NCBI GenBank assembly: GCA_964596395.1
Contig: CAZQSY010000001.1
Coordinates: 27,763 to 91,762 of the forward strand
From: an uncultured Candidatus Saccharibacteria bacterium
GTDB taxonomy: Bacteria; Patescibacteriota; Minisyncoccia; Phycocordibacterales; UBA9973
Direction: 5' to 3'
Length of the DNA: 64,000 nt
The position numbers and the translations under genes were made by a program. Shown here in pieces: positions 2,307-33,067 of the stretch. Position 1 is the first letter of the stretch. Each line of letters begins with the position of its first letter. Under the pieces are notes generated by a model. That model saw only the letters and a program-made list of their open reading frames with translations, made no database searches and had not been told where the DNA came from.

Positions 2307-3431
2307 TTACTGGTATTGTATATATATCGGCTTCGGGGAGAGATTAAGGATTTCAGCCGGTGTCATCAGGCGGGAATCTTTTTCGAGCAGGTCGTTTTTG
2401 TAGAAAAGTTTAAAGCCCGTGAACTGCACCGGCTCTTTGTGGACAAATTGCTTATAGGTATTAATTTTTCTTGCCTGATGCCCCCAGCCATCCATATCCA
2501 TGACAATCTGCGTTTCGGGCAAGGGTTTGATGTTTTGGTAATTCGTAACCATGTTCTGAGTAAAACGGTGTATTACCAAAATTTTCGGCGTAAGCTCGTT
2601 TTCCCTCACGACTCTGGCCAAAAAATCCGCCGCGAAATTTATGTCTTTGGCATCGTACGTCCCGATGACTTTGCCCGGTCTGGCCCCCGTCTTCATTGAA
2701 AATTCCGGGTCAATGCCCAGATGCACGTTCGGAAGCTTAAAATATTTTTCAAGCGGCGGAAGCTCTGCCTCTAAATTTGAAAGCCCGACCTGGATATCCA
2801 AGAAAATAAGCGCACCTATTTTCTCGGCCATTTTGAGAACTTTTTCAATCTCTTTGGCCGGCATGCGCGCCCGGTACTTGCCGTCGGCTCCGGCGCTTCC
2901 TTGCGCCACCACCGCGATATAGTGAAGCGCTGGAGTGGCGGGCGTGCCGGGGTCAGCTAATTTCCATTTTTCAACTTCAGCTTTCAGTTTCGCGAGCATT
3001 TCTTCTTCGGGGTACTCGCCGAGCGCCCCCATCTTCTTGGAAAGCAGATTGCCGTAATAGGCGATAATCCGGGAAAAAGGCAGTATCGCTCCGCCGTTCG
3101 GATAAACCGTTTTCGCCGGCCAGAGATTGGGCTTGGGAGGCAAAAGCGGTATGGGCTCGCCGGTTTTCGGGTCGATTTTGGGCTCTACTGTTTTCGGCGG
3201 CGGGTTGTTGGCCAATTCTAAAAGCTTCGCGTCATAAGCCGTTTTGTCGAGCACGGGCGGAGCGGGTTTTTTCTTTACTTCTTCGGCAATTTTCTTTACT
3301 CCGTTTATCACCTTACTAGAAAACACTTCCGGAATAAAAAAATAAAGCAGGACGATAGATATAAGCAGGAAAAAAAGCAAAAAGAGAGTACCACTTGACG
3401 TACCTTTCTGCTTTGAAAAAATATTCATCAT
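2307..3431 (-). CDS. hypothetical N-terminally anchored, Pro-rich linker protein with C-terminal TIM-barrel-like (possible glycoside hydrolase-like, DUF4015-like) domain
   Basis: TM helix + PPPKTVEPKIDPKTGEP linker + ~250 aa conserved-looking domain; family not securely recognised. Confidence 0.25.
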   Translation of the reverse strand: MMNIFSKQKGTSSGTLFLLFFLLISIVLLYFFIPEVFSSKVINGVKKIAEEVKKKPAPPVLDKTAYDAKLLELANNPPPKTVEPKIDPKTGEPIPLLPPKPNLWPAKTVYPNGGAILPFSRIIAYYGNLLSKKMGALGEYPEEEMLAKLKAEVEKWKLADPGTPATPALHYIAVVAQGSAGADGKYRARMPAKEIEKVLKMAEKIGALIFLDIQVGLSNLEAELPPLEKYFKLPNVHLGIDPEFSMKTGARPGKVIGTYDAKDINFAADFLARVVRENELTPKILVIHRFTQNMVTNYQNIKPLPETQIVMDMDGWGHQARKINTYKQFVHKEPVQFTGFKLFYKNDLLEKDSRLMTPAEILNLSPKPIYIQYQ

Positions 3432-4762
3432 TCGCGGGATTTTGCGAGTCCTATAATTTCTTCAACTGTACTGCCTTTTTTGTAAATTAGCAAATCATCG
3501 GTTGGCTTCTTCCATTCCTCCTGTATCGGGCCGACGATTCTCCAGCTTTCAAGTATCTCTTCACTTGAGGCGAACAAACTATGGTCGGAATTAAACGCGC
3601 TGTACAAAACCTGTTCGTAGGCCTCCGGTAATTTTTCATAATGGTCTTTGAAATGAAAACTCAGAACATGCTGGGAGAGTTCCCGTCCGTAGCCCGGCTT
3701 CTTCGCCCATACGCTGAACTTTATGCCCGCGTCCGGCTGTAAACGCAGCAGAAGTTCATTTGATTCGTGCTCCTCGCTTTTCTTGTAACGTATTTTTATT
3801 TCGGTAAACCTGTCCCGCAGCGCTTTGCCGTGGGTGAGCGCCATCGGCACCCCATGCCATTTCGGGTCGTCAGATTCGAGCTGTACCGACACGAATGTCT
3901 CAACATTTGATTTTTCGTTTCCGACTTCTTGCCTGTATCCTTCATACTGTCCGCGCGCGGCGCGCGCGACTTTCAAATGTTTGAGGGTATCTTGACGGCA
4001 CGAAGAAACCTCAGACAAATCGCACTTCGGGGGCAAATCCATCAGAACAAGCGACAGAAGCTGAAGCAGATGGCTCGGCACATAATCCCGCAAAGCGCCG
4101 GTCTGCTCGTAAAAATGCGCCCTGTTTTCGATACCCAGCTCTTCGCTCGCCGTTACCTCGATATTTTCTATAAATTCATTATTCCAAGTTTTTTTGAAAA
4201 GCGAATTGCCGTCGCGGAAGACAATTATGTTCTGCGCCGCTTCCTTGGCCAGATAGTGGTCTATACGGTAGACCTCTTCGGGTTTGAAATATTTTTCTAT
4301 GTGTTCGATTAAGTCCTTGGCGCTCGCGTAATCTTTCCCGAAAGGTTTTTCTAGAAGAAGTTTGCTTTTTCCGCGCTTCGGCAATCCGGCTTTCCCGATG
4401 CATTCTACTATCCCCTTGCATGCCTCGGGCGGTACGGAAAGATAAAAAATTCTCTGCGCCGGCTGGCCGAAAGATTTTTCAATCCCGTCCAAAACTTCTT
4501 CGAGCTTTCTACAATCTCCTTCTTTCTCGGCATCCAGGCGATGAAGTTCCAAATTTTGCCCGACGAATTTCAAATCGCCAGAAGCACGGCACAGGTCTTC
4601 CGCCGAAAGACCGGTCTTCCTGGTAATTCCCACTATCCGAAAATCCTCGGGAAGCATGCTCGCCTGGTGAATCGCTTCAATGGCCGGCAAAAGGTACCGC
4701 CGAGACAAATCGCCGGAAATTCCGAAGATTATTAAAATTGTTGGTTCTCCTTTGTTTGGCAT
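3428..4762 (-). CDS. zwf: glucose-6-phosphate 1-dehydrogenase
   Basis: N-terminal IFGISGDLSRRYLLPAI and RIDHYLAKE active-site signature (G6PD RIDHYLGKE). Confidence 0.85.
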   Translation of the reverse strand: MPNKGEPTILIIFGISGDLSRRYLLPAIEAIHQASMLPEDFRIVGITRKTGLSAEDLCRASGDLKFVGQNLELHRLDAEKEGDCRKLEEVLDGIEKSFGQPAQRIFYLSVPPEACKGIVECIGKAGLPKRGKSKLLLEKPFGKDYASAKDLIEHIEKYFKPEEVYRIDHYLAKEAAQNIIVFRDGNSLFKKTWNNEFIENIEVTASEELGIENRAHFYEQTGALRDYVPSHLLQLLSLVLMDLPPKCDLSEVSSCRQDTLKHLKVARAARGQYEGYRQEVGNEKSNVETFVSVQLESDDPKWHGVPMALTHGKALRDRFTEIKIRYKKSEEHESNELLLRLQPDAGIKFSVWAKKPGYGRELSQHVLSFHFKDHYEKLPEAYEQVLYSAFNSDHSLFASSEEILESWRIVGPIQEEWKKPTDDLLIYKKGSTVEEIIGLAKSRE

Positions 4763-22548: not shown

Positions 22549-22568
22549 CCTGTCTGCCGGCAGGCAGG
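22549..22568. repeat. 20-nt palindromic repeat CCTGTCTGCCGGCAGGCAGG (1-mismatch copy of the element found at 27766 and 28142)
   Basis: seen directly. Confidence 0.6.
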
Positions 22569-22588: not shown

Positions 22589-23164
22589 CTAACGAGCTTC
22601 TCCTTCAAAATCAGGCACCACGATACCCCATCGCATACTCGCCGGGTCGAGCTTGAGATAAATGCTTTTGCCCACAGACGGCTCGGCGGTCATCGGCTCC
22701 CCTGCCGCGCGCTCGGCATAATTCACGACAATAACATTCTTGTGCCTCGGGTTTGGGCTCGATTCAATCGTTTGCGGGGCGATACGATCACCCAAAAAGT
22801 AGCCATCCGAACCGGCGTAGCCCTTTCCAGCATCAAGCGCGGCGACCGCGTAATAGAAAACGCCAGAGCCGCCAGTTTCTTGCGTTAGAATAAAAACTGC
22901 GTCTTCTTCGCCGTCATCGTTCAAATCTATCCGCAAATCACTGCCGAAGTAGCGAGTGATAATTTTTGAAGCCGAACCGGGAGCAGATTCCTCTTGCGCA
23001 ACTCCATTTTCAAGCTTTACCCTTTCTCCTTCAATGACATACTCTATATTTTTATAATCGGCCGAGACAGCCGGCTGTCGCTCTTTGTCGGCAAACGAAT
23101 TAAATAAAAGAAAGCTTGTTGCGGCTATAACAACAACGCCTAGGACAAAAAATGGTTTTTTCAT
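22589..23164 (-). CDS. hypothetical secreted/lipoprotein-like protein
   Basis: N-terminal signal/TM; no family recognised. Confidence 0.3.
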   Translation of the reverse strand: MKKPFFVLGVVVIAATSFLLFNSFADKERQPAVSADYKNIEYVIEGERVKLENGVAQEESAPGSASKIITRYFGSDLRIDLNDDGEEDAVFILTQETGGSGVFYYAVAALDAGKGYAGSDGYFLGDRIAPQTIESSPNPRHKNVIVVNYAERAAGEPMTAEPSVGKSIYLKLDPASMRWGIVVPDFEGEAR

Positions 23165-27670: not shown

Positions 27671-27671
27671 G

Positions 27672-27744
27672 AGCCGCCCCCGAGGATCGAACTCGGGACC
27701 CCAGCTTTACGAAAGCTGTGCTCTACCAACTGAGCTAGGGCGGC
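27672..27744 (-). tRNA. tRNA-Thr (anticodon CGU), no encoded CCA
   Basis: hand-folded: GCCGCCC acceptor, anticodon stem CAGCT/AGCTG loop TTCGTAA, T-loop TTCGATC. Confidence 0.75.
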
Positions 27745-27757
27745 TTGTTTTTCCCCT

Positions 27758-27806
27758 CTGTGCTCCCTGCCTGCCGGCAGGCAGGTACCAACTGAGCTAG
27801 GGCGGC
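27758..27806 (-). repeat. truncated copy of tRNA-Thr(CGU) nt 1-29 with 20-nt palindrome CCTGCCTGCCGGCAGGCAGG (27766..27785) inserted in the D-loop
   Basis: rc reads GCCGCCCTAGCTCAGTTGGTA-[palindrome]-GAGCACAG then diverges; identical to 5' of adjacent tRNA. Confidence 0.7.
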
Positions 27807-27810
27807 AGGA

Positions 27811-27886
27811 TGGAGCCGTTGATCGGGATTGAACCGATGACCTCGTCATTACCAATGACGTGCTCTACCAACTGAGCTACAACGGC
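27811..27886 (-). tRNA. tRNA-Thr (anticodon GGU), CCA encoded
   Basis: hand-folded 76-nt cloverleaf; anticodon stem CGTCA/TGACG loop TTGGTAA. Confidence 0.8.
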
Positions 27887-28131
27887 AATTTACTTTTCAA
27901 AAACTCTTTTCCCGTGCCTGACTTAAGATATCTCTCCTTAACCCTGCAATTAATGCGACTTCCACATTCTCCGTGATACAAAACTTTCCACGGCCTAAAT
28001 CCTTTAGTGGAAAAGACTCTGCCTAAATTATGATCCAAAAGTCTTTTGGAAAGATTCTGCGTCATGCCCACGTAAACCCTATTCTGTTTGTTGAACAAGG
28101 CGTAAACTAGCATTTTCAAATTATATACCAT
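27877..28131 (-). CDS. small GIY-YIG nuclease superfamily protein (YhbQ/UPF0213-like)
   Basis: VYALFNKQNRVYVGMTQNL...R...E GIY-YIG-type pattern; start reset to ATG 28131; 3' end overlaps tRNA-Thr(GGU) 5' end by ~10 nt. Confidence 0.55.
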   Translation of the reverse strand: MVYNLKMLVYALFNKQNRVYVGMTQNLSKRLLDHNLGRVFSTKGFRPWKVLYHGECGSRINCRVKERYLKSGTGKEFLKSKLPL

Positions 28132-28132
28132 G

Positions 28133-28182
28133 GACGTGCTCCCTGCCTGCCGGCAGGCAGGTACCAACTGAGCTACAACGGC
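28133..28182 (-). repeat. truncated copy of tRNA-Thr(GGU) nt 1-30 with the same 20-nt palindrome (28142..28161) inserted in the D-loop
   Basis: rc reads GCCGTTGTAGCTCAGTTGGTA-[palindrome]-GAGCACGTC then ATG of GIY-YIG gene. Confidence 0.7.
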
Positions 28183-28279
28183 TTATTGAAAAATCAAAAG
28201 AACAAGGAAATACTACTATAATTCGCTTGTTTTTTCAATGAATTCTTGCGCGACTTAGTGAAAGAGGCTAAAACTGTGA

Positions 28280-31979: not shown

Positions 31980-32266
31980 CGCGGCTGAAGGGTGCTGACC
32001 CCTCGACCTCTCCCGTGCACTTATCCTATATTTTCATAAAGGCGTGGACTATATCTTCGCCGTGTCCCGTAAAAACGGAATTTAGGCGCTTTGGTATCTA
32101 GTCTCTACGGAGCCCCCGCTAAGGCGGGGTTCCCACGGTGTTCGCGTGCTCCGACACGAGGTCGGAGTTTAGCCTTCACCGTTATCCCAAAGAGTTTCAA
32201 TCCGCCCTTTCGGCGGAAAGCTGCAGTAATCTACAGGGGAGTGCTCTACCGTTGAGCTACAGCCGC
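31980..32266 (-). tRNA. tRNA-Asp (anticodon GUC; loop CUGUCAC) interrupted in the anticodon loop by a ~215-nt group I intron; mature 73 nt, no encoded CCA, non-canonical T-loop (GTCAGCA)
   Basis: perfect 7-bp acceptor GCGGCTG/CAGCCGC, D-arm GCTC-AACGGTA-GAGC, anticodon stem CTCCC/GGGAG split ~215 nt apart; G73 discriminator; alternative exon boundary would give UGC but G3-C70 argues against Ala. Confidence 0.6.
32018..32232 (-). ncRNA. group I self-splicing intron (boundaries +/-3 nt)
   Basis: conserved S element AAGAUAUAGUCC and R-like GUAGAGACUAGAUAC giving P7 GACUA/UAGUC; 5' exon ends in U, intron ends in G. Confidence 0.65.
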
Positions 32267-32878
32267 GTGTATGTATTTTTCAAACACATTTTTCTTCCTT
32301 TTCAGAAACAATCTTGATGTGCCGAGCTTATTATACATAAAATAATACAATTTCAAAGCGTCTGAGGTGCTGTACTGCAATCTGGAAAAATCTTTCTTTT
32401 TTGACCTATAAACACAGCCACCTCGCAAACCAAGCGCGCGAAGCTTTATGTATAAGCTGCGCATGAAGTCGTGCGACCCCGAAGTGAAGGCCAGCTGTAA
32501 AACCTTGTGTTTAGTTTTCCTGTTCTTGTGGACTTCCCCGGACCAAATATTCCCATCACCATCAAAGTAACCCCTCACAAAATGAGGCGTGTATTTCAAA
32601 GGTATGCGCGGAATTTTCAGGTATTTAGTTTTTCTCTCCCCGAAACCAATTTCTCGCAAATCGTCACACATTTCCTTGCTGCCAATCTGGATCCTGTATT
32701 TGGTACTCTCCCCGATTTTGGAAGACAAACGTACGCTGATTTTATGTTCAGACCTCAAAGCCTTCTTAATACTTTCTAAGAGTTTTTTGTCGCTAATCTG
32801 TATGCACCAAAATTGCCCGCCGCGTTTATTCACAGTTATGTATCCATCGGCGGCAAAAAAACCTAAAACGTACGCCAT
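32246..32878 (-). CDS. LAGLIDADG homing endonuclease (two-motif, single-chain)
   Basis: LGFFAADGYI and RGYFDGDGNI motifs; start reset to ATG 32878 (listed N-terminus is antisense translation of tRNA-Met); stop overlaps 5' exon of intron-containing tRNA. Confidence 0.7.
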   Translation of the reverse strand: MAYVLGFFAADGYITVNKRGGQFWCIQISDKKLLESIKKALRSEHKISVRLSSKIGESTKYRIQIGSKEMCDDLREIGFGERKTKYLKIPRIPLKYTPHFVRGYFDGDGNIWSGEVHKNRKTKHKVLQLAFTSGSHDFMRSLYIKLRALGLRGGCVYRSKKKDFSRLQYSTSDALKLYYFMYNKLGTSRLFLKRKKNVFEKYIHAAVAQR

Positions 32879-32991
32879 CTTCGGAGTCCATCTCTTAAAG
32901 AAATTCTTGTTGATTTTTATATGCACCGGCACAAATATATTATATCTAGTGACAGGATAATATACTAACCGTGCTGGGGAAAAAATTGCTG

Positions 32992-33067
32992 TGGTGTCGG
33001 GGGTGGGAATCGAACCCACGACCCTGGGCTTATGAGTCCCATGCTCTACCGACTGAGCTACCCCGAC
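32992..33067 (-). tRNA. tRNA-Met/Ile2 (anticodon CAU), CCA encoded
   Basis: hand-folded: GTCGGGG acceptor, D GCTC/GAGC, loop CTCATAA, T-loop TTCGATT. Confidence 0.7.

Follow-up and report, generated by a model that had tools for sequence, protein, structure and literature searches.

A GIY-YIG mini-nuclease gene between a palindrome-split tRNA-Thr fragment and an intact tRNA-Thr gene, and the recurrence of this layout with many tRNAs

The analyzed DNA (hereafter the window) is a 64,000-nt stretch of a contig of an uncultured Candidatus Saccharibacteria bacterium. Its minus strand carries two intact tRNA-Thr genes, two dead fragments corresponding to the 5' ends of these genes, and a small gene for a GIY-YIG nuclease, and each fragment is interrupted by the same 20-nt sequence, designated P (Table 1). 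An earlier reading made from the sequence only had proposed that each tRNA-Thr gene is preceded by a truncated copy of its own 5' end bearing a 20-nt palindrome, and alignment of the minus strand confirmed this. P (CCTGCCTGCCGGCAGGCAGG) is a perfect palindrome and splits both fragments after nt 21. The part of the GGU fragment ahead of P (28182-28162) is identical to nt 1-21 of tRNA-Thr(GGU) (21/21), and the part behind it (28141-28126; GAGCACGTCCATGGTA) matches nt 22-37 at 14 of 16 positions and includes the anticodon. The CGU fragment is identical to nt 1-21 of tRNA-Thr(CGU) ahead of P (27806-27786) and continues behind it with GAGCACAG (27765-27758), equal to nt 22-29. The sequence-only reading had let both fragments end at nt 29 or 30, which is right for the CGU fragment and too short for the GGU fragment; it had also placed a nuclease gene between fragment and tRNA, which holds for GGU, whereas the CGU pair is separated only by a spacer. 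This spacer (AGGGGAAAAACAA) may be a native leader, given its resemblance to the leaders of two related loci (L157 and L158).

Table 1. Features of the tRNA-Thr locus and palindrome copies in the window.
Feature	Position	Strand	Remarks
Solo P variant CCTGTCTGCCGGCAGGCAGG, 1 mismatch	22549..22568	n/a	not tRNA
Intact tRNA-Thr(CGU)	27671..27744	-	ARAGORN; Rfam tRNA, 63.8 bits
Spacer AGGGGAAAAACAA, 13 nt, CGU fragment to intact tRNA-Thr(CGU)	27745..27757	-	
Dead partial copy of tRNA-Thr(CGU), 5' end (nt 1-21, then P, then nt 22-29)	27758..27806	-	
P copy 1, CCTGCCTGCCGGCAGGCAGG	27766..27785	n/a	
Intact tRNA-Thr(GGU)	27811..27886	-	ARAGORN; Rfam
GIY-YIG nuclease gene, 78 aa (MLVYALF...KLPL), single domain, UPF0213/YhbQ-like	27877..28113	-	
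Dead partial copy of tRNA-Thr(GGU), 5' end (nt 1-21, then P, then nt 22-37 at 14/16)	28126..28182	-	
P copy 2	28142..28161	n/a	
Promoter-like TTGAAA-N17-TAGTAT, 27 nt 5' of GGU fragment	28210..28238	-	consensus match

Four bases separate the intact tRNA-Thr(GGU) gene from the CGU fragment. ARAGORN and Rfam called only the two intact tRNA-Thr genes and neither fragment as a tRNA, no Rfam family other than tRNA matched the fragment and nuclease region, and no intron model of Rfam matched between 27000 and 29000 even at E≤10. The RNA hairpin of P has a folding energy of -13.9 kcal/mol. Besides its two exact copies, the window contains one copy with a single mismatch, located 20 nt past the stop codon of an unrelated ORF (22589-23164, minus strand), and no match to P was found in any of 100 shuffles of the window.

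The nuclease ORF matches the Pfam GIY-YIG family (PF01541; E = 7.6e-12, 45.8 bits against a cut-off of 22.6). Alignments showed that the family-invariant residues Y4, Y14, R24, H28 and E60 are all kept. Among proteins of solved structure, the nearest in sequence are EF2693 and BH0048 of UPF0213 (PDB 1ywl and 1zg2; E~1e-7), followed by Slx1. UPF0213/YhbQ proteins have the same size and the same single domain as the window nuclease; we know of no palindrome or tRNA linkage described for them. With 78-79 aa, the nuclease consists of the catalytic domain only, and a separate DNA-binding domain is missing. Its stop codon TAG (27879-27877) coincides with nt 8-10 of tRNA-Thr(GGU), in agreement with the overlap noticed earlier. 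The start had been placed 2 nt past the fragment. The first ATG, at 28131 (84-aa form, P0001), lies within the fragment, and the alignment of orthologues puts the predicted true start at the second ATG, at 28113. Directly 3' of the GGU fragment stands TATAAT-N6-ATG. Pairwise dN/dS among orthologues is 0.04-0.13 with saturated dS, and this purifying selection indicates that the gene is maintained. The promoter-like element TTGAAA-N17-TAGTAT has a consensus score not above that of shuffles; TTGCAA-N17-TAGTAT occupies the equivalent position in the alignment of L157 and L159. It is probably the native tRNA promoter, now driving the fragment, the nuclease gene and the tRNA.

Orthologues of the window nuclease (64-78% identity) were found at four loci of its own lineage (L156-L159), all at tRNA-Thr genes and three of them adjoining prfB, which also neighbors the window locus. 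In L157 and L159 the junction follows tRNA nt 37, as in the window, and the fragments contain an additional degenerate palindrome at nt 7|8. In L158 and L156 a functional tRNA-Thr(GGU) has an altered D arm and P-bearing fragments flank the ORF on both sides; L156 also holds a dead tRNA-Thr(CGU) of nearly full length whose D loop contains P, and in L158 a variant tRNA is inserted 6 nt past P. The layout of L158 can be derived from that of the window by recombination between an intact GGU tRNA and a CGU fragment. Recombination between tRNA pieces in L156-L159 implies that the two fragments of the window are not simply two independent hits. As to the earlier alternative, that the pattern arose twice or is maintained by gene conversion, the locus is better described as a rearranging one. 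P is exact over the same divergence at which the synonymous sites of these ORFs are saturated, which argues that P is under constraint or keeps being renewed. The relatives yielded no empty tRNA-Thr site, and the prfB relatives examined have no tRNAs upstream of prfB. One relative with a close prfB homologue (L242) carries another small GIY-YIG gene (3144-3404) downstream of prfB, beside a MazE-like gene, at a site different from that of the window.

The search of other genomes for the 20-mer and for 5' fragments of tRNAs, as suggested with the earlier reading, revealed the same layout with many tRNAs. In 80 metagenomic loci, sampled solely by similarity to the window nuclease, a P-like site (at most 3 edits from P) lies upstream of the nuclease in 43, 26 of them exact; the distance to the start of the domain is mostly 42-90 nt and reaches 238 nt in a few loci. 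A tRNA follows immediately downstream in 40 loci, its first nucleotide lying -22 to +47 nt from the stop codon, which falls within the tRNA in 27 of these 40 ORFs. Both elements occur together at 31 of the 80 loci. We distinguished 37 instances of P within a 5' fragment of the cognate downstream tRNA, representing the Asn, Arg, Leu, Phe, Lys, Thr and Gly families, while the Met-linked loci have variant palindromes only, the Met group with a P variant of its own. The fragment reaches nt +1 in 34 of the 37 instances. P follows nt 9-10 (n = 5), 14-15 (n = 7), 20-24 (n = 22), or 31, 39 and 55 (n = 1 each), and the fragments end between nt 15 and 74, 4-35 nt past P. In single-cassette instances, 222-283 nt separate the fragment end from the intact tRNA, i.e., the length of the ORF; the gap is longer with tandem cassettes and shorter where no ORF intervenes. 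No recombinase gene was found between the tRNA repeats, the gap (about 240 nt) holding the ORF only.

Individual loci illustrate the range of this arrangement: (i) tRNA-Lys nt 1-22, P, nt 23-30, a GIY-YIG ORF and an intact tRNA-Lys (L037); (ii) tRNA-Gly nt 1-31, P, nt 32-46, a frameshifted ORF and an intact tRNA-Gly (L106); (iii) the layout of the window with tRNA-Leu (L118); (iv) the same layout on a viral contig (L152); and (v) fragment-P-ORF units in tandem (L206 and L232). Loci lacking an exact P have slipped, nested or collapsed forms of it, or other GC-rich hairpins, in the fragment, and some fragments hold two or three palindromes. The duplicated part is mostly the 5' end of the tRNA. 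Two loci (L182 and L183) show a mirror form, in which an intact tRNA-Arg and the ORF are followed by a 3' fragment whose T loop contains P; P therefore follows the partial tRNA copy and not the start of the ORF. Homology between tRNA copies extends 0-6 nt upstream of +1. A fragment edge at +1 produced from mature tRNA by RNA-templated repair was considered and judged unlikely, as homology often continues for 1-6 nt upstream of +1 and the mirror form has a 3' fragment.

At one locus (L060), about 36 nt separate P from the ORF within an hsdS gene, with no duplication; this arrangement indicates that they are separate insertions with target sequence between them. In the same locus (3780-4300, a type I restriction S-subunit gene), a 714-aa frame is open throughout and spans P, the displaced target piece and the nuclease domain.

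A neighbor-joining tree of 88 GIY-YIG domains comprised two clades. The first (P clade) is tRNA-linked and bears P, with groups corresponding to Leu, Thr, Asn with Phe, Met and several Arg tRNAs; a P-like site occurs in 43 of its approximately 55 loci, compared with none of approximately 25 loci of the sister (Q) clade. Q-clade loci (L222, L224, L227, L229, L231, L233 and L238; also L190, L196, L199, L202, L221 and L235) have neither P nor a tRNA. Their ORF is located between the inverted repeats ACCCCGTTAGA and TAACGGGGT, in the order ACCCCGTTAGA(N8-15)ATG ... TAACGGGGT with the stop codon within the right arm, or, alternatively, is preceded by CCCCGTTAGAGATCACAAGTC at a host ORF's 3' end. 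The type of palindrome is thus specific to the nuclease clade. Evidence of this kind, a pairing of clade and repeat, is also what tied REPs to RAYTs.

The nuclease family as a whole is large, with 3200 clusters (at 50% identity) matching at E≤1e-3. Among its 150 best representatives, 13 contain translated P within called N- or C-terminal extensions; gene callers extend such ORFs through P and tRNA sequence. A coding role for P, read in frame as PACRQAG, was suggested by six early cases and rejected, since P is not in this frame in L157 and L159 and occurs translated in all three frames among the family representatives.

P is also widely dispersed. An exact copy was found in at least 120 stretches of a species-representative genome collection, where about one is expected by chance, and in 35 stretches of viral contigs. 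Among the matches listed are Patescibacteria, Bacteroidota, Omnitrophota, Planctomycetota, Proteobacteria, Bdellovibrionota and others, including isolate genomes of Winogradskyella, Flagellimonas, Longitalea and Flavivirga. About 90% of the copies are unrelated to tRNAs and mostly flanked by unrelated intergenic DNA; a tRNA-derived context was recognized at about 16 of 163 unique P sites vs. 4 of 155 control sites. The sequence-only reading had allowed that the 20-mer might prove to be a generic REP-like repeat with many copies away from tRNAs. This is half borne out by the preponderance of non-tRNA copies, but P is enriched in tRNA pieces and, as described above, bound to one nuclease clade.

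Comparison of filled and empty sites showed that P is a discrete 20-bp insertion. In a phage locus (L145), P forms a clean 20-bp insertion in the variable loop of a tRNA-Met-like gene, and two orthologous loci (L250 and L251) are empty, the pair showing no duplication. ARAGORN calls this interrupted gene (L145, 2239-2330) as a tRNA, taking P for an intron, and such calls could enter databases as intron-containing tRNAs. In L122, P is accompanied by a 12-nt deletion starting 2 nt from it. For two viral solo copies, no relatives were found to supply empty sites. P prefers A before it (position -1) and T after it, with no other flank preference, and no consistent target-site duplication or target motif beyond the A at -1 was detected. 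As regards MITE traits, P consists wholly of inverted repeat, and about 80% of 164 P sites have no flush direct repeat. At 7 of these 164 sites (control 0.2%), P is bordered by flush direct repeats of 7 nt or more, often within short tandem repeats. Many solo copies are placed at unit boundaries of 7-14-nt tandem repeats (L101, L082, L129, L058, L050, L121, L144 and L142), which yields flush direct repeats on both sides of P. P can nest at the center of another P, and its CCTG units vary in number, i.e., undergo slippage.

An intact nuclease ORF lies 27-45 nt from P at 5 of 164 sites, and about 97% of the solo sites have no GIY-YIG ORF within 330 nt. The idea that solo copies are decayed cassettes was rejected, as no remnant stands beside 159 of 164 sites and only L083 retains the first 7 codons. 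No Pfam family is enriched among 150 ORFs neighboring P, and P-rich viral contigs contain no nuclease gene in the parts examined; for both reasons, a larger gene tied to P was also dismissed. A pre-existing hairpin-loop preference of P was set aside because enrichment is weak (10% vs. 3.7%). Phage contigs with 3-6 exact copies include L141, L148 and L149 (one 29.5-kb IMG/VR contig), L127, and L121/L150, and several phage copies are embedded in longer repeats. In L024 (100-520), P adjoins a duplicated region with a ribosome-binding site and ATG, whose two copies enclose an unrelated, non-GIY-YIG ORF of 86 aa.

The layout thus occurs repeatedly, at many different tRNAs; nuclease lineages correspond to tRNA families, and the ORF is under purifying selection. 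We give about even chances to the view that the window contains one complete and one ORF-less copy of a three-part selfish module, composed of (i) a minimal GIY-YIG gene (encoding ~79 aa) placed 5' of a tRNA, (ii) a duplicated piece of that tRNA, and (iii) P within the piece. The best reading of these sequences would be a tRNA-targeted, homing-type mini-nuclease cassette together with a trans-mobilized palindrome, comparable to REP/RAYT. The nuclease would break the DNA of a tRNA gene, and through break repair the cassette would home from one copy of a given tRNA to another, the fragment upstream and the intact tRNA downstream acting as portable homology arms, so that the host would always keep one working tRNA. 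Such homing with tRNA pieces could explain why the nucleases group by tRNA family, why the fragments are preserved and why an intact tRNA is always present. The duplicated piece (about nt +1 to nt 15-74) would be left upstream, behind the native tRNA promoter, from which the cassette may be transcribed: no more than 10-42 nt lie between P and the ATG, and in most loci this interval contains neither a -10 box nor a Shine-Dalgarno sequence. P is most likely the DNA site of the P-clade nuclease and would be multiplied in trans, as REPs are by RAYT. Within tRNA sequence it might survive only in the redundant partial copy, where it would also break up a direct repeat that could otherwise delete the cassette. 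A counterpoint to homing is that the intact tRNA beside the gene does not differ in sequence from the presumed target. Further points against this reading are the small size of the protein (79 aa) with its missing DNA-binding domain, the roughly 97% of solo P sites that have no GIY-YIG ORF nearby, the P-rich viral contigs with no nuclease gene in the parts examined, the inconsistency of target-site duplications, and the failure to find an empty tRNA-Thr site in relatives.

The sequence-only reading had offered two options, the footprint of a tRNA-targeting homing nuclease and a small palindromic insertion element aimed at tRNA D-loops. Each option holds in part, and the two are linked; the layout is recurrent, selection on the nuclease gene is purifying, and P acts as a discrete 20-bp insertion. 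In a fuller form, which we put forward tentatively, the nuclease and P would constitute a new nuclease-palindrome selfish pair and a non-HUH analogue of REP/RAYT, with the 20-bp P inserted or multiplied in trans, the gene nesting at tRNAs while regenerating the intact tRNA, and a spread across phyla that would take in Patescibacteria, Bacteroidota, Planctomycetota, Omnitrophota, Proteobacteria and their phages.

Somewhat unlikely, in our estimation, is an independent P, a miniature palindromic element moved by host replication or repair, or by another enzyme, which gathers in harmless dead tRNA fragments left by an unrelated GIY-YIG homing cassette. The many copies away from tRNAs and from nuclease genes, the phage contigs bearing P with no nuclease in the parts examined, the nesting and CCTG slippage, and the lack of an enriched neighbor family would all fit an element of this kind. 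Against it, nearly all P-clade loci have one to three palindromes within a fragment of 30-40 nt, which amounts to a very large local enrichment, P is missing from the sister clade, which has its own motif, and conservation at 20 of 20 positions across phyla, where synonymous sites are saturated, points to sequence-specific recognition by a protein.

Still less probable is that P is a homing site, which the nuclease binds and beside which it cuts, a few to ~35 nt away, with the ORF or a replacement tRNA captured at the break and solo copies serving as empty landing pads. Such cutting would agree with the fragment ends 4-35 nt after P, the deletion in L122, the tRNA inserted 6 nt past P in L158, the P and ORF spaced by ~36 nt in hsdS with no duplication, and the nesting of P at the center of P. 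It would nevertheless require a prior insertion of P in a single-copy tRNA, which would be lethal; P stays intact beside the ORF, so that the carrier allele would still be cut; and a single domain of 79 aa is unlikely to reach so far from its binding site.

A host-beneficial regulatory leader, in which the fragment and hairpin would govern how the tRNA operon transcript is processed or how stable it is, with a domesticated nuclease, has very little probability. The promoter, fragment and ORF do form one conserved unit in the window, L157 and L159, and the ORF is under purifying selection, but the arrangement is patchy and rearranged among close relatives, frameshifted, tandem and degenerate copies exist, the module also occurs in hsdS and phage tRNAs, and no Rfam family matches it. 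An assembly or library artefact, e.g., an adapter junction, would suit a perfect palindrome found mostly in metagenome-assembled genomes, but is practically discounted by the copies in isolate genomes (of the four genera named above) and from many independent projects, by orthologous copies with point mutations and indels, and by the consistent placement relative to tRNA and ORF.

The preferred reading, of a homing-type cassette with a trans-mobilized palindrome, was compared with known systems. Free-standing GIY-YIG homing genes such as segB, in a tRNA gene cluster of phage T4, encode Seg proteins of more than 200 aa with a DNA-binding domain. They share with the present module the position beside or between tRNA genes, the sporadic and apparently selfish occurrence, and a probable spread by break repair with co-conversion of flanks; unlike it, they are not known to leave a duplicated tRNA fragment or to have an associated palindrome, whereas the gene described here encodes ~79 aa and ends in a tRNA. 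With regard to such homing genes, the locus differs among L156-L159 and the ORF has tRNA pieces on both sides; a clean empty allele of tRNA-Thr did not come to light, and the separate DNA-binding domain is lacking. In Allomyces atp6, a mobile GIY-YIG/LAGLIDADG ORF of fungal mitochondria reportedly carries a replacement gene end and leaves a duplicated pseudo-end. Here too, insertion of an ORF goes along with a partly duplicated target gene and one intact copy remains, but the mitochondrial cases concern protein-coding genes, 3' ends and organelles and are not known to have a constant palindrome in the displaced piece. A group I intron-encoded endonuclease does not fit, as no intron model matched and a complete tRNA follows the ORF; nor does an integrase-type tRNA island, given the lack of a tyrosine or serine recombinase and the duplication of the 5' end in most cases.

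RAYT transposases have the HUH/Y1 fold, and their REPs are lineage-specific. The likeness to REP/RAYT lies in the dispersed solo palindromes, the small gene flanked by a palindrome and the pairing of protein clades with repeat types; in contrast, the fold is that of GIY-YIG, one and the same 20-mer occurs in different phyla and in phages, and the gene is associated with tRNA genes. Cyanobacterial small dispersed repeats are another comparison, which Elhai is said to have described in 2008. Palindromic GC clusters of yeast mitochondria are very short, GC-rich mobile palindromes (PMC4478555). Like P, these clusters and repeats nest, merge and transfer horizontally; they differ in having no known linked nuclease gene, other hosts and no known tRNA-fragment context.

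In the literature searched we found no published description of the 20-mer or of the module, related work being only mitochondrial and on phages. The parts (a homing-type nuclease gene, a partly duplicated target and a short mobile palindrome) are of known kinds, and their combination and cross-phylum reach appear to be undescribed. If the proposal is correct, a nuclease of 79 aa and a palindrome of 20 bp would rank with the smallest known systems of selfish DNA, and would show how a parasite can occupy an essential single-copy tRNA gene without killing its host. It would also account for the identity of the 20-mer across distant phyla and phages, and give a role to part of the large, uncharacterized UPF0213/YhbQ-like GIY-YIG family. 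A sequence-specific mini-nuclease with a defined 20-bp site would possibly be a useful tool.

The window contains a further tRNA-associated locus (32025-33067, minus strand), in which tRNA-Met(CAT) is followed by a free-standing LAGLIDADG ORF (~32246-32875), whose end runs into a tRNA 5' half (GCGGCTGTAGCTCAACGGTAGAGCACTCCCCTGTAG). Directly after it comes a group I intron-like RNA (Rfam RF00028, 32025-32242; 33.6 bits, below the gathering score, E = 2e-6). Judging from this order of elements, the region is probably an intron-split tRNA missed by ARAGORN.
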